A DNA stretch of 64,000 nucleotides, taken from contig CAVWVQ010000003.1 in assembly GCA_963758525.1 (NCBI GenBank), positions 3,392,001 through 3,456,000 on the forward strand, in the 5' to 3' direction. The translations under genes and the position numbers were made by a program. Within the stretch, counting starts at the first letter, position 1; each line of letters starts with the position of its first letter. Source of the stretch: an uncultured Phycisphaerales bacterium (lineage in GTDB: Bacteria > Planctomycetota > Phycisphaerae > Tepidisphaerales > Tepidisphaeraceae). Shown here piece by piece: positions 57,875 to 63,997 of this stretch. The notes beneath the pieces are model-generated. The model searched no databases. It was not told the origin of the DNA and saw only the letters and a program-made list of their open reading frames with translations.

Positions 57875-58255
57875 ATGAGTCGCGGCAAATCCAATTCGCG
57901 CGAGCGTGAGATCCGAAAGGCTCGGCGTCTGCTCTCGGATGAGCAACTCTTGTCGCTCCTGCGGGCGATGAGGCGGCCCGGGCAGTCGTCGTTTGCGGTG
58001 GAGCAGATCAATGCCGACCTGAACCAGGGACAGATGCTCGATCAGATCTTTTACACGGGGGAGAGCGACGGCTTCCATCTGAAGATCACGCGGCAGGCCG
58101 CCTCGCGCCTGCAAATCGAATTCTCATGGACATTCCAGCAGACACTCGGAAACTCGACGTCGTTCAGTGAAGGGGCCGGCGGAACGTGGTTCGTGGAAGT
58201 CGACGCATCAGGTGCGGTGCGATTGCTGGACGGCGCGATGATTTGGATGAGTTGA
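57875..58255 (+). CDS. Hypothetical protein, paralog of 58892-59251
   Basis: Identical first 25 aa (MSRGKSNSREREIRKARRLLSDEQL) and a shared DQIFYTGxSDGF motif. Confidence 0.75.
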   Translation: MSRGKSNSREREIRKARRLLSDEQLLSLLRAMRRPGQSSFAVEQINADLNQGQMLDQIFYTGESDGFHLKITRQAASRLQIEFSWTFQQTLGNSTSFSEGAGGTWFVEVDASGAVRLLDGAMIWMS

Positions 58256-58281: not shown

Positions 58282-58599
58282 CTACGGCAGTTCCAAGCGA
58301 CGGTATTCGCCCGGTCGTATTGACGAGATCGCAGACTGAATAAGGCCGACGTTCGTGACGATTCGACGAAGCTTGTTTGTTGAGAGCTCAAGAATCGCTA
58401 TCCGACGCCCGGCGAGATTCTGCTGATACGCGAGGTTCTGATCGGAGGTGATGAAGAGATCAAACGTCGGCTCGGCGAGGCGGAGTAGTTCGCCATTTCT
58501 AACGCCAGCCCAACCACAGAGCTGAACCGGCCGGCATTCATGGCCGGTTAGATATTTGGCTAATGGCCAAGGCACACACTCATCGAGCAGGATCTTCAC
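58282..58599 (-). CDS. DUF5615 PIN-like toxin
   Basis: KILLDECVP, GWAGVRNGELL, FITSDQNLAYQQNL; GTG start overlapping the DUF433 stop. Confidence 0.88.
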   Translation of the reverse strand: MKILLDECVPWPLAKYLTGHECRPVQLCGWAGVRNGELLRLAEPTFDLFITSDQNLAYQQNLAGRRIAILELSTNKLRRIVTNVGLIQSAISSIRPGEYRRLELP

Positions 58600-58814
58600 G
58601 GCGCCGCCGGCGCGAGAAGAGCGGACTCGGATCTTTCCAGCACGCGACACGCCATCTCACGCGTCACCGTCGGAAAGCATTCGAGAAACTCATCGAGCGC
58701 GTAGTCGTCTTCAAGGTAGTCGAACAGCGACTTGACCGGAACGCGCGTTCCCCTGAAGACCGGCGTGCCTCCGAGAATTTCCGGGTCGATGGTGATGAGA
58801 TCGCGGGCGTCCAT
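58596..58814 (-). CDS. DUF433 antitoxin
   Basis: ITIDPEILGGTPVFRGTRVPVKSLFDYL...FPTV. Confidence 0.92.
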   Translation of the reverse strand: MDARDLITIDPEILGGTPVFRGTRVPVKSLFDYLEDDYALDEFLECFPTVTREMACRVLERSESALLAPAAP

Positions 58815-58891: not shown

Positions 58892-59251
58892 ATGAGTCGC
58901 GGCAAATCCAATTCGCGCGAGCGTGAGATTCGGAAGGCCCGCCGTCTGCTCTCCGACGAACAACTGGTAGCGATTTTCCGCGCGATCGAGCGGAGCCCGG
59001 AAACGAACATCTTCGCGGTTACGCTCGCGAACGAAGAGCTGAGCCGGGGACAATCACCGGACCAGATCTTCTACACCGGCGCCAGCGACGGCTTCGTCCT
59101 GAGCGTCAAAAGACTTTCCTCGTCACGGGTCGAAATCGACTTCGGCTACGTCCCGGTCCCACTCGCCGGCGATGGGGGCGCCTGGGTCGTGCAACTTGAC
59201 GAAGCCCGAGACGTGCGATCGGTGCAGAATAAAATCTGCTGGACAAGCTGA
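58892..59251 (+). CDS. Hypothetical protein, paralog of 57875-58255
   Basis: GGAG RBS; shared N-terminus and DQIFYTG motif. Confidence 0.75.
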   Translation: MSRGKSNSREREIRKARRLLSDEQLVAIFRAIERSPETNIFAVTLANEELSRGQSPDQIFYTGASDGFVLSVKRLSSSRVEIDFGYVPVPLAGDGGAWVVQLDEARDVRSVQNKICWTS

Positions 59252-59296: not shown

Positions 59297-59416
59297 AAAG
59301 CCAACGGATTGCCATCCGTTGGGCATTTTCTGCGAGGGAACGAGGGGAGCGATGGGAAAAAACGCGGGATTGCAAATGGGAAATCGGGGAACAGCGGATG
59401 GCAATCCGTTGGCTTT
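59297..59416. repeat. AAAG-footed REP inverted pair next to the RAYT-like gene
   Basis: aaagccaacggattgccatccgttgg (59297) and its inverse at 59391-59416; a third copy at 60703-60728. Confidence 0.85.
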
Positions 59417-59876
59417 ATTGGGGAAACGGACCGGCGCGATCGAATCTCCAGACCCGGGCCCCGCGCTTCGCGTGATCGAGAATGTATCCAAATGCTTCGA
59501 CCTGATGCCCCCGGTCGGCGATCGGCTCAGCGCGCGAGCGCTTCGCCCACAATCCGCCCTTGGCGCTGCGAAGGCCCAACTGACGAACGGAGTGCGACGC
59601 GTGCTTCTTTGCAAGGCCGATCCAGTGTCTGGGTTTGTGATCGGGGAAGCGAGCGAGGACGTGGAGGTGCCGGGAATCCAGCGAGACAATGAGAACTTCA
59701 ATCCCGTTGCGACTCAGGTTTTCCGCGATGGCATCAGCAACGAACTGCCGAAGTTCCGTTGCGATGCGCACCGCGTCACGCTGCATGAGCGCTTTGGAGA
59801 GTTCGTGCAGATTGTGGTACTTGCCCTTGGGCGGCGGATGCTTGTACTCACCGTCCACATGTTCGGGATGGTGCAC
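59415..59876 (-). mobile_element. IS200-like Y1 HUH / RAYT-type transposase, N-terminally truncated or short
   Basis: HLHVL HUH motif, GGLWAKRS, FGYILDH (catalytic Tyr helix); REPs adjacent. Confidence 0.7.
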
Positions 59877-59963: not shown

Positions 59964-60656
59964 GAGATCCGACGTTCGCAAAACTGGATCGGCGGTACGC
60001 GGCCCGGCAACGCCCGGTTCGTCCCGCCGCCGCCGGACGAAGTGGCCGGTGCGATGTCGGCGCTGGAGAAGTGGATTCATGCTACGGACCCGCTGCCACC
60101 GCTGGTGAGGGTGGGCTTGGCCCACGTCCAGTTCGAGACCATTCATCCATTTCTGGACGGCAACGGCCGTATCGGTCGACTGTTGATCGCGCTGCTCGCG
60201 GAGCACTGGGGCCTTCTCAAACTGCCGCTGTTGTACCTCAGCGTAGCGTTCAAACGGCACCGCGAGGAGTATTACCGGCTGCTCGGTGCGGTTCGGACCC
60301 AAGGCGATTGGGAAGGCTGGACGGGCTATTTTCTGGACTGCGTCCGCGAAGCCGCCCAGGACGGCGTGTCGGCGGCGCAGCGACTGTTTTTGCTGATTGG
60401 CAAAGACCGCATTCGGCTGGCGAACCATCCCTCGGCCACCGTTGCGGCCATCCGGCTCTTCGACCAGATGCCCGCCCACCCCATCGTCACCCTGGCAACG
60501 GCGATCAAGCTGCTCAACGTGACGAAGCCGACGGCAGGCAAAGCGATCGACGCACTCAGGCAAGCCCGAATTCTCCGCGAAACCACCGGCAGGAAGCGAG
60601 ACCGTGTGTACGCGTACGATGCCTACCTGAAGGTGCTGACCACCGATACGGGGTGA
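59964..60656 (+). pseudogene. Fic-family protein, 5'-truncated
   Basis: EIRRSQNWIGG, HVQFETIHPFLDGNGRIGR, C-terminal HTH; no N-terminal domain or convincing start. Confidence 0.8.
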
Positions 60657-60843: not shown

Positions 60844-61668
60844 ATGATCTTCGGCCATATCATTTTGGAAGCGCGCCCGAGCGACAGCAATAGCGTCCTC
60901 ACCGCGCTCCTGCCGATCATTGTGGTGACGGCGATTGTCGTCGTGCGGCGCTCGAACCGGCCCAAGCGACGGGCGGCGGCGGCGACGAAGCCGGCGGCGA
61001 CATTTGTTCCCACCACGCACCCGGTGATTATGCCGCGGGCCGGCGGCGGGACGCCGTCGCGGGTTTTGTCGCCGATTGAATCGATCCGTCACCTCCTGGG
61101 GCCGGCGCCGCGGACGTTTGATCCGGGTCTTGGCTCGTATCTCACGGTGTTGCCGCCGAAGTGGCTGGAGAAAAGCCCGGCGGATGAGATGTGGCTCAAT
61201 GTCAAACACCAGGAGCGCGTGCGGCGCGATGGGCAAGTCGTGTGGGCGACGATCGTCCAGGCCAATAACAATCTCTTCAAACTGATCGCGGCCGAATCGG
61301 GCGCATCGGTGATCTACAGCCCCGACCCCTTTTTTGACGGCACGCGCGTCATGCTTCGGTCGATCGCCGGCCAGTGTTTCGCCACGAAGGGAACCGACCC
61401 GGCCGACCCGGAATCCGCCGTCTTTGCACGGATGCTCACCAATGAGATGACGCGTGGCATGCGATTGAAGGTGCCTGGCGCTTTCACCAGCGGCCGGCAG
61501 GTCTTTCACTCGTCGATGCTGATGCCGCGCAAGCACCTGCCCAAAGGCGTTCTCTCGGGGAGTTTCTTCCCTGTGTGGATCGATCCGCAAAATACCGGGG
61601 CGGTGGTCATGGTTCCCGCCGCCTACTGGCCGGCGAGTCTTACCGCCGAGTGGGATAAGCCCGGATGA
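60844..61668 (+). CDS. Membrane-anchored hypothetical protein
   Basis: N-terminal TM, VWATIVQANNNLF motif; TAAAAT -10 box 6 nt upstream. Confidence 0.7.
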   Translation: MIFGHIILEARPSDSNSVLTALLPIIVVTAIVVVRRSNRPKRRAAAATKPAATFVPTTHPVIMPRAGGGTPSRVLSPIESIRHLLGPAPRTFDPGLGSYLTVLPPKWLEKSPADEMWLNVKHQERVRRDGQVVWATIVQANNNLFKLIAAESGASVIYSPDPFFDGTRVMLRSIAGQCFATKGTDPADPESAVFARMLTNEMTRGMRLKVPGAFTSGRQVFHSSMLMPRKHLPKGVLSGSFFPVWIDPQNTGAVVMVPAAYWPASLTAEWDKPG

Positions 61669-61677
61669 AGACACTGA

Positions 61678-61948
61678 CCCTCACCCCGACCGTCTCCCGG
61701 ACTTTTTCATGGGGGCCCCACGCCCAGAGAGAGTGAAATGGGGTTGCTCTGGCATTGGGTGGCGTGGGTGGCGTCTCTTTTCAGAGCAGAAATGTCCAAG
61801 GCCCAATGGCCAACAAAGCCCCAAGGTCCAAGGCCCAAGGTTGGTTCTCCCACTGGTCATTGCGATTTGGGATTTTGTTGGCCATTGGGCCTTGGACATT
61901 TCTGGGTCTCCCACATCTCTTTTCGGAGCAGTACCGGGAGAGGGGGGG
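61678..61948. repeat. Nested repeat: ccctctccc-type REP split by an insert carrying a perfect 31-bp inverted repeat
   Basis: IR at 61787-61817 / 61874-61904; 16-bp near-direct repeat at 61774-61789 / 61916-61931. Confidence 0.75.
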
Positions 61949-62163
61949 AAAGTGCTTGATCGCCCCTATCAATCCCCACATTCCCCTCGCAATTGGGTGT
62001 AACTTTTATTTGTGGCGATTGCAGATTTTGCGATCGTAGGGCGGGATTCATCCCGCCGTTTTCTCAGCCGGCCAACAAATCGGCGGGATGACTCCCGCCC
62101 TACTCGGAGCCGATCGCCACTTTCGAGCGCCACACCCTCGCAATCGCATTTCCCGCCGTCGCA

Positions 62164-62191
62164 TTGACCCTCGCGCGGTGGCAGCTATGAT
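62164..62191 (+). promoter_or_regulatory. Sigma70-type promoter for the cimA leader
   Basis: TTGACC-N16-TATGAT; predicted +1 coincides with the leader ATG at 62199. Confidence 0.6.
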
Positions 62192-62198
62192 TGCACCT

Positions 62199-62261
62199 AT
62201 GCATCGGCGGACGATTCGAATTGCCCCGGCCACGATTATGATCGCGATCCATCGCGGGTGA
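62199..62261 (+). CDS. Ile-rich attenuator leader peptide MHRRTIRIAPATIMIAIHRG
   Basis: 5 Ile in 20 codons; directly followed by antiterminator/terminator structures and cimA. Confidence 0.75.
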   Translation: MHRRTIRIAPATIMIAIHRG

Positions 62262-62291
62262 GGGCTATTCGTTGATCGAATACAGTGAGAC

Positions 62292-62322
62292 AGCCCTGCC
62301 CCGCCGGCAGGGCTTCTTTTTT
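62292..62322 (+). terminator. Attenuator terminator upstream of cimA
   Basis: agccctgcc-ccgcc-ggcagggct followed by tctttttt. Confidence 0.85.
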
Positions 62323-62354
62323 AACTTGGTTTTCCAGTTTAATCAGGTGCTTTC

Positions 62355-63997
62355 ATGACCGACCAGCGCCGCATCGAAATCTACGACACGACCCTGCGCG
62401 ACGGGACGCAAGGCGAAGGGTTCAATCTCTCGTTGCAGGACAAGCTCCTGATTGCCAGGAAGCTCGATGAGCTGGGCGTGGATTACATCGAAGGCGGGTT
62501 CCCGCTTTCCAATCCAAAGGACGCGGCGTTTTTTGAGGAGGCGCGGCAAATCCACTTCCGGCACGCGAAGATCGCGGCCTTTGGAATGACGCGCCGGCGG
62601 GGAATCAAAGCCTCGGACGATCCGGGGATGCAGGCGCTGGTGCATGCGCAAACGCCGGTCGTCACGCTGGTCGGCAAGAGCAGCGAGTTTCACGCGACGG
62701 CGGTGCTCTCGGTCAGCCCGGAGGAGAATCTGCAGATGATCGCCGACTCCGTCCGCTTTATCCGCGAGGCGGGTCGGACGGTGGTGTACGATGCCGAGCA
62801 TTTCTTCGATGCGTTCAAGGCCAATCGCGAATATGCGATCAAGACGCTGATGGCAGCTCAGGAGGCGGGCGCATCGGTGCTGGTGCTTTGCGATACCAAT
62901 GGTGGGACGATGCCGGAGCAGGTTGCCGAGGCGGTCGCGGCGGTGAAAGCCGCGGCGTCGGTCATGGTAGGCATTCATACGCATAATGACGCAAGCCTTG
63001 CGGTCGCGAATGGACTGGCGGCCGTGCGGGCGGGCGCGGCGCATGTGCAGGGGACGATCAACGGAGTGGGCGAGCGCTGCGGCAACATGGATCTGCTGCC
63101 GCTGATCGCGAATCTGCAACTCAAGTACAACCTCTCGTGCCTGGCGCCGGGGACGCTGTGCGCATCACCGAGACGAGCCGATTCGTCTATGAGACGGCCA
63201 ATCTGAACATGTGGTCGGGCCAGCCGTACGTGGGGAGCAGCGCGTTTGCCCATAAGGGAGGGATGCACGTGCACGCGGTGCAGAAAAACGCCAGCACGTA
63301 TGAGCACGTTTCGCCGGAGCTGGTGGGAAATACGCGGCGGGTGCTGATCAGCGAATTGTCGGGGGCGAGCAACATCGCCGCCAAGGCGGGCAGGAAGTTT
63401 GACATCGAGTCGGACAAGGCCGCGCTGCGGAAGGTGCTGGAAACGGTGCAGGACCTGGAGAATGCCGGGTATCAGTTCGAAGCAGCCGAGGCCAGCTTCG
63501 AGCTGTTGCTTCGCAAGCAGATCGGCCGGCATCAGCGATTTTTCACGCTGGATCACTACCGGGTAAGCGTTCTGAAACAGGGGGAATCGGATGCGATTTC
63601 CGAAGCGACCGTGAAGTTGCTCGTCAAAGAAACCACGGAGCACCGCGTCGCGGAGGGAGATGGGCCGATCAACGCGCTCGATGGCGCGCTGCGAAAGGCG
63701 CTTCGGCCGCACTACGCGTCGATCGATGAGGTGCATCTGACCGACTACAAAGTGCGGGTGATCAACTCCAAGGACGAGACGGCGGCCAGCGTGCGCGTCA
63801 TCATCGAGTGCCGGCGTCTGCGCCGGGATGGTTCCAAGGAAGCATTCGGAACGATCGGCGTGAGCGAGAATATCATCGACGCGAGCTGGCAGGCGCTGGT
63901 GGATGCCTACGAATATCACCTGATCCATGTGGCGGAGGAATCGGCGCCGCAAGGGACGACGACGCCGGCTGAGGCGCCGGCGATGGCTGTTCGCTAA
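62355..63997 (+). CDS. cimA: Citramalate synthase (frameshift near 63160)
   Basis: YDTTLRDGTQGEG, YDAEHFFD, HTHND, GERCGN, AHKGGMH, GYQFEAAEASFEL, GVSENIIDASWQAL. Confidence 0.93.

Follow-up and report, generated by a model that had tools for sequence, protein, structure and literature searches.

Citramalate synthase (CimA) initiates the threonine-independent route to isoleucine, and we asked whether the short isoleucine-rich open reading frame and terminator ahead of cimA in this 64,000-nucleotide stretch of DNA (the window) could tie transcription of the gene to the supply of its end product. An earlier note on this DNA had read the site as a probably leaderless, isoleucine-sensing transcription attenuator. 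Conservation of the leader, an encoded amino acid that matches the pathway, swapped-pairing comparisons and folding under a ribosome mask all fit that reading, and we conclude that cimA is very probably governed by a ribosome-mediated attenuator that would allow its transcription only when charged Ile-tRNA is scarce.

Anatomy of the leader and of the gene behind it

All elements of the leader lie on the plus strand. It opens with a predicted sigma-70-type promoter comprising a -35 box, TTGACC (62164-62169), kept as a TTGAC-like box in relatives, and, across a 16-nt spacer, a -10 box, TATGAT (62186-62191), whose first T and last A form invariant columns in an alignment of 22 leaders. This is the one promoter-like site in 61500-63000, a 1.5-kb interval for which 0.3 would be expected. 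Seven nucleotides downstream of the -10 box, an ATG begins a 20-codon leader ORF (62199-62261) that carries five Ile codons (codons 6, 8, 13, 15 and 17) and has no Shine-Dalgarno (SD)-like site upstream. The leader stop codon is held within segment 2 (62254-62278), which can partner either with segment 1 (62212-62236), the coding strand of a 1:2 protector helix predicted by folding and supported by a swap test, or with segment 3 (62292-62304), which serves both as the 5′ arm and loop of an intrinsic terminator and as the 3′ strand of the antiterminator. Segment 4 and the U-tract (62306-62322) complete the terminator, the 9-bp stem of which spans 62292-62314 and is followed by the U-tract up to 62322. 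The leader as a whole has a folding z score of -2.26, and an SD-like AGGTG ahead of cimA (62345-62349), able to pair with the 3′ end of the 16S rRNA of the same genome, falls outside the hairpins.

The promoter, the 20-codon ORF with its five Ile codons, the terminator and the antiterminator pairing, in which AGGGCT at 62261 faces AGCCCT at 62292, all lie where the earlier note had placed them. That note had also invoked an inner stem of TATTCG (62266) and CGAATA (62277) in favor of the antiterminator. We rejected this stem as specific support, as it is not state-specific: the hairpin is seen in terminated folds, and its sequence is not conserved. The lowest-energy antiterminator fold uses a different inner stem and has a further pairing of GCGGG (62254-62258) with CCCGC (62300-62304).

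In 18 of the 22 leaders the ATG follows a strict promoter at a distance of 6-10 nt (median 8), and SD-like pairing at or below -4 kcal/mol is found in 3 of 22 leaders as opposed to 14 of 21 cimA starts. Across the genome, 13 of 42 strong consensus promoters have an ATG at 5-11 nt, compared with about 4 expected, with a peak at 6 nt. Since the usual distance from a -10 box to the start site is 6-7 nt, the 5′ leader would measure 0-4 nt; transcription probably starts that close to the ATG and the leader would be translated without an SD. The tight -10-to-ATG spacing and the mostly absent SD lend partial support to the earlier description of the transcript as leaderless, which we would reword as near-leaderless rather than proven leaderless.

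The cimA gene (62355-63997, plus strand) is split over two frames, being one base short at approximately 63156-63161, a shortfall absent from the earlier note and revealed by codon comparison with eight relatives that are in frame there. Both halves find their best family in TIGR00977 (model positions 2-263 and 266-523; 356.5 and 293.4 bits) and score far higher with it than with LeuA models; each half falls below the curated cut-off of 450 bits because of the frameshift. The frameshift is likely an assembly error, given that a similar frameshift-like split occurs in one other locus among the 31 binned hits and that the leader is still intact. When a same-family CimA was used as the query, the three closest named records came from Tepidisphaeraceae or Tepidisphaerales, and a separate leuA is present on contig C2 of the same genome. 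The gene looks monocistronic, as one overlapping frame is the sole long same-strand ORF between cimA and 64977.

The genome contains five PALP-family genes that we could find (cysK, cysM, two thrC and trpB), and no match to ilvA (threonine dehydratase) was found in it, at 90.9% completeness. We considered and rejected a tie of the attenuator to ilvA loss: with G004 left out, 21 of 40 in the family, roughly half, possess an ilvA-type gene too, and the attenuator therefore does not depend on IlvA being absent.

Two large inverted repeats (62037-62103 and 61779-61913) lie upstream of the promoter. The former starts with GTAG, and we take it to be REP-like. At 59415-59720 on the minus strand is the C-terminal part of a long ORF whose motifs resemble those of a REP-associated tyrosine transposase, which we assume it to be, and a plus-strand ORF ending at 60656 is presumably Fic-like, again by motifs. 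The ORFs at 57875-58255 and 58892-59251 have identical first 25 residues and flank a minus-strand ORF (58282-58650) that we take to be PIN-like. The 274-aa ORF upstream of the leader (60844-61668) had no NCBIfam match.

Conservation and amino-acid content of the leaders

A cimA match was obtained in 21 of 24 same-family genomes, and with the unpublished G004 left out the leader device is found upstream of cimA in 19 of the remaining 20, the sole exception being a cimA without a leader (L021, in G016). The Ile-rich upstream ORFs that the earlier note had suggested seeking before cimA in relatives are therefore present. Adding the window and two named loci to these 19 gives the 22-leader set, from which L095 (a duplicate of L013) and L010 (unpublished) were left out. 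The family consensus runs TTGACC, about 16 nt, TAnnAT, 6-10 nt, ATG, an Ile cluster and then GGGTAGGGC, which is the consensus of segment 2 and contains the stop codon in most family leaders; a variable spacer, GCCCTGCCC, a loop, GGCAGGG and a U-tract follow. The encoded peptides are 15-20 residues long with 2-7 Ile each, and in 14 of 22 leaders the stop comes 7 codons past the last Ile. All eight consensus pairs of the terminator are kept in 22 of 22 leaders, and two pairs show two-sided change. From the terminator to cimA the distance ranges from 21 to 275 nt across leaders; in the window, the U-tract lies 32 nt from the cimA start.

To look more widely, we asked for a terminator together with an ORF in which at least two of the last 16 residues are Ile. 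Such leaders were called at 2 of 8 class loci from other families, at 13 of 54 loci of the phylum and class, and at 23 of 77 named loci. The loci so called, a set chosen for Ile content that includes near-duplicates, are mostly planctomycetes, with a few weak calls and some leaders that add Val. In other planctomycete lineages, the cimA leaders L090, L105, L106, L112, L115, L127 and L024 carry Val as well as, or in place of, Ile, which suggests lineage-specific dual sensing. Outside Planctomycetota, we noted weak calls of an Ile-containing leader and terminator before cimA-like genes in L135 and L137, from records titled Terriglobia and Abditibacteriaceae.

Isoleucine accounts for 91 of the 369 residues (24.7%) encoded by the 22 leaders, as opposed to 3.8% in the cimA coding sequence, with Leu at 11 (3.0%) and Val at 5 (1.4%); the other two frames of the same leaders yield 10 and 0 Ile per 369. 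Codon choice differs as well, the 91 leader Ile codons being 61 ATT, 29 ATC and 1 ATA, and the 181 in cimA 26 ATT, 153 ATC and 2 ATA. With a caller blind to amino-acid identity, leaders were recovered at 20 of 23 cimA loci, with 24.8% Ile and 2.7% Leu, and at 19 of 21 leuA loci (20 relatives and the window genome), with 27.0% Leu and 2.1% Ile. In its strict form this caller missed the window leader and L014, both of which were found by a motif-based caller.

The leuA leaders share a similar layout, with TCGTAGGG opposite CCCTACGA or CCCTGCGA. That of the window genome, a Leu-rich ORF with antiterminator and terminator, lies on the minus strand (G000:C2, ATG at 388372, in L033; relatives L174-L192). 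On the same contig and strand, a 17-codon leader rich in Phe, Trp and Tyr (ATG at 119794) and its terminator precede a DAHP-synthase-like gene, which from its N-terminal sequence we take to encode DAHP synthase. Of 386 terminator-like sites genome-wide, 57 combine a short upstream ORF with a long downstream ORF; 2 of these 57 have at least four Ile in the short ORF, and the five most biased in amino-acid content include the cimA, leuA and DAHP-synthase-like leaders. The agreement of leader residue with pathway, Ile before cimA and Leu before leuA, supports an Ile-sensing attenuator. As far as sequence comparison reaches, the anatomy of the leader, its conservation and the match of its amino acid to the pathway are established.

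Predicted RNA states and competing explanations

The leader can form three mutually exclusive helices, 1:2, 2:3 and 3:4. When untranslated, the window leader is predicted to adopt 1:2 (62212-62236 with 62251-62278) together with the terminator (-46.5 kcal/mol). A 5′ mask reaching 62249-62252 makes the antiterminator the lowest-energy fold (-25.1), pairing GCGGG and AGGGCU with AGCCCU and CCCGC, and a mask extending beyond 62258 restores the terminator. Partition functions under such ribosome masks gave a terminator probability of 0.07-0.15 with the A site on Ile13 (62235-62237) or Ile15 (62241-62243), for covers of 6, 9 and 12 nt, and of at least 0.8 for Ile6 and Ile8; these values come from an equilibrium rather than a kinetic folding model, in which the two folds of the window lie just 1-3 kcal/mol apart. 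Ile13 and Ile15 are thus the predicted control codons, and Ile17 (62247-62249) is borderline, with a terminator probability of 0.13 at 6 nt of cover and at least 0.99 at 9 and 12 nt.

We observed a similar pattern across the 22 leaders at 9-nt cover. The terminator was favored in all 22 with a ribosome at the stop codon and in 16 with no ribosome, the remaining 6 failing to terminate, and the antiterminator was favored at some Ile codon in 21 and as an average over the last two Ile codons in 17; L002 was terminated at nearly all ribosome positions. Folding under ribosome masking, a check that the earlier note had put forward, therefore predicts a three-state switch (1:2 with 3:4, 2:3, and 3:4).

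The 9-bp core of 2:3 is 93.9% paired in the family, compared with 33-60% when slid. Own segments also paired better than swapped ones, with duplex energies of -22.4 against -21.3 in the family (52 of 10000 swaps) and at -19.4 against -13.7 ± 0.6 for 38 wider loci (0 of 10000), in keeping with the earlier claim of an antiterminator that excludes the terminator. Swapping also supports the 1:2 protector helix, which was absent from the earlier account: with a 20-nt segment 2, the 22 family leaders gave -18.7 against -16.6 ± 0.55 (0 of 10000), and with a shorter segment 2 there was no signal (2175 of 10000). Compared with synonymous recodings, the mean z was -0.89 and 18 of 22 leaders fell below zero; both the swap and the recoding tests overstate the effect because the kin are not independent. 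As to the covarying stems that the earlier note had proposed to look for, two terminator pairs change on both sides, and column covariation in the 2:3 core is weak, with one pair changed on both sides and 57 of 500 shuffles scoring equally high, as the core barely varies within the family. RNAalifold returned the terminator alone from the family alignment, as expected for helices that exclude each other.

We next weighed whether the same attenuator might sense Ile along with a second amino acid in the style of thrL or ilvL, namely Thr here and Val in other Planctomycetota. Threonine makes up 9.8% of leader residues compared with 6.4% in the cimA coding sequence and often occurs within Ile-Thr-Pro, and Val stands beside Ile in the wider-phylum leaders L105, L106, L115 and L127. 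However, leaders L004, L008, L013 and L015 lack Thr, Val reaches just 1.4% in the family, and the Thr can be explained by RNA pairing, in which the Thr-Pro codons ACC CC engage segment 2; we regard dual sensing in this family as unlikely, though the strongest of the alternatives. The recurring, loose C-terminal pattern I-I-T-P-x-x-x-G could alternatively mark a nascent peptide of the TnaC or SpeFL type that halts the ribosome when a ligand is present, as opposed to starvation at Ile codons. This we find highly improbable: peptide sequence and length (15-20 aa) are highly variable, the terminal Gly is explained by the GGG conserved in segment 2, the leuA paralogue places Leu for Ile on a similar layout, and free-ligand arrest is generally expected to turn on catabolic rather than biosynthetic genes.

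A structured 5′ leader near the cimA start would also suit translational control in which the cimA ribosome-binding site is masked, or a riboswitch or T-box. We give this scarcely any weight, as the SD at 62345-62349 lies outside every helix, the distance from terminator to cimA is variable (21 to 275 nt), and an Rfam scan of 61500-62500 returned no family above threshold and no T-box or riboswitch up to E 10. Finally, the frameshift in the assembled cimA leaves room for the short ORF and terminator to be an independent small gene, with cimA using its own promoter or being a pseudogene in this strain. This is very unlikely, since 61500-63000 holds no second promoter-like site and the relatives share the leader with the compared part of their cimA in frame, and, as to a pseudogene, the second split locus and the intact leader point to an assembly error.

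In an attenuator responding to Ile-codon starvation, the reading that we prefer, stalling of the ribosome at Ile13 or Ile15 would mask segment 1 and allow segment 2 to pair with segment 3; 2:3 then precludes the terminator, and RNA polymerase would therefore enter cimA. A ribosome that reached the stop codon would cover segment 2 and let the terminator form, and without any ribosome 1:2 and 3:4 would likewise bring about termination. We infer leader translation, stalling on uncharged Ile-tRNA and read-through from this arrangement, and the sensed signal would be Ile alone, in keeping with the role of CimA in the pathway.

Relation to known attenuators and what the leader implies

Leader-peptide attenuators include ilvL, thrL, trpL and hisL, of which ilvL and thrL are multivalent Ile sensors. 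With these and leuL of the enterobacteria (ilvL serving ilvGMEDA), the cimA leader shares a short ORF rich in codons for the end product, the 1:2, 2:3 and 3:4 helices and an intrinsic terminator ahead of the first pathway enzyme. It differs in its cimA target, in having no SD before the leader and no Rfam match, and in apparently responding to Ile alone whereas ilvL and thrL are multivalent. Excerpts of PMC5314783 cover the leuL attenuator of enterobacteria as well as a Streptococcus leuA leader detected despite having no sequence resemblance to E. coli. The latter likewise places an attenuator before an enzyme of the isopropylmalate/citramalate synthase family, but with Leu codons and isopropylmalate synthase rather than Ile and citramalate synthase.

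In Corynebacterium glutamicum, excerpts of PMC11857589 present IlvL of ilvBNC as a three-hairpin attenuator (anti-antiterminator, antiterminator and terminator) whose leader is treated as leaderless mRNA, both points of likeness to the cimA leader. Leaders before trpE, leuA, ilvB and aroF are described for the same species in excerpts of PMC3890552, and the window genome has a set similar in its leuA and aroF targets. As compared by description, IlvL differs in its phylum, in its ilvB target and in sensing the branched-chain amino acids as a group. The T-box riboswitches before leuA and ilv genes of Bacillota, in excerpts of PMC12452182, also read tRNA charging and control branched-chain amino acid genes by termination, but they bind uncharged tRNA directly and without a leader ORF, and the window has no T-box match.

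Leader genes are counted in Planctomycetes in PMC4833913, the consulted main text of which does not mention isoleucine, citramalate or leuA, and excerpts of PMC3223726, PMC12452182, PMC13236596, PMC8632094 and PMC9026213 yielded no cimA attenuator. Our full-text searches of main texts found neither a cimA attenuator nor an amino-acid attenuator of Planctomycetota. Lopatovskaya et al. (2010) and Vitreschak et al. (2004), the latter a comparative survey of attenuators in proteobacteria, could include such leaders under the name leuA.

The locus shows every attenuator feature that can be examined computationally, which makes it a well-supported candidate; cimA as the target, sensing that seems limited to Ile, and a very short 5′ leader set it apart. 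We further favor, with more reserve, the idea that Tepidisphaeraceae, and probably the wider Planctomycetota, possess a set of attenuators built on one near-leaderless RNA scaffold, with the stop codon in the antiterminator strand, and recoded by pathway, with cimA using Ile alone, leuA Leu and the DAHP-synthase-like gene Phe, Trp and Tyr, and the cimA sensor favoring the wobble codon AUU (61 of 91, as opposed to 26 of 181 in the gene).

The mechanism is a textbook one, and what sets this case apart, as far as our searches reach, is cimA as its target and a planctomycete host. The Ile-rich leader favors annotation of the enzyme as CimA over LeuA, and could act as a compact Ile sensor. The proposed switch implies transcription-translation coupling tight enough for attenuation, as well as initiation on transcripts whose 5′ leaders are very short or missing, and offers a testable answer to how the citramalate route may be transcriptionally controlled in planctomycetes, a phylum in which little regulation has been described.
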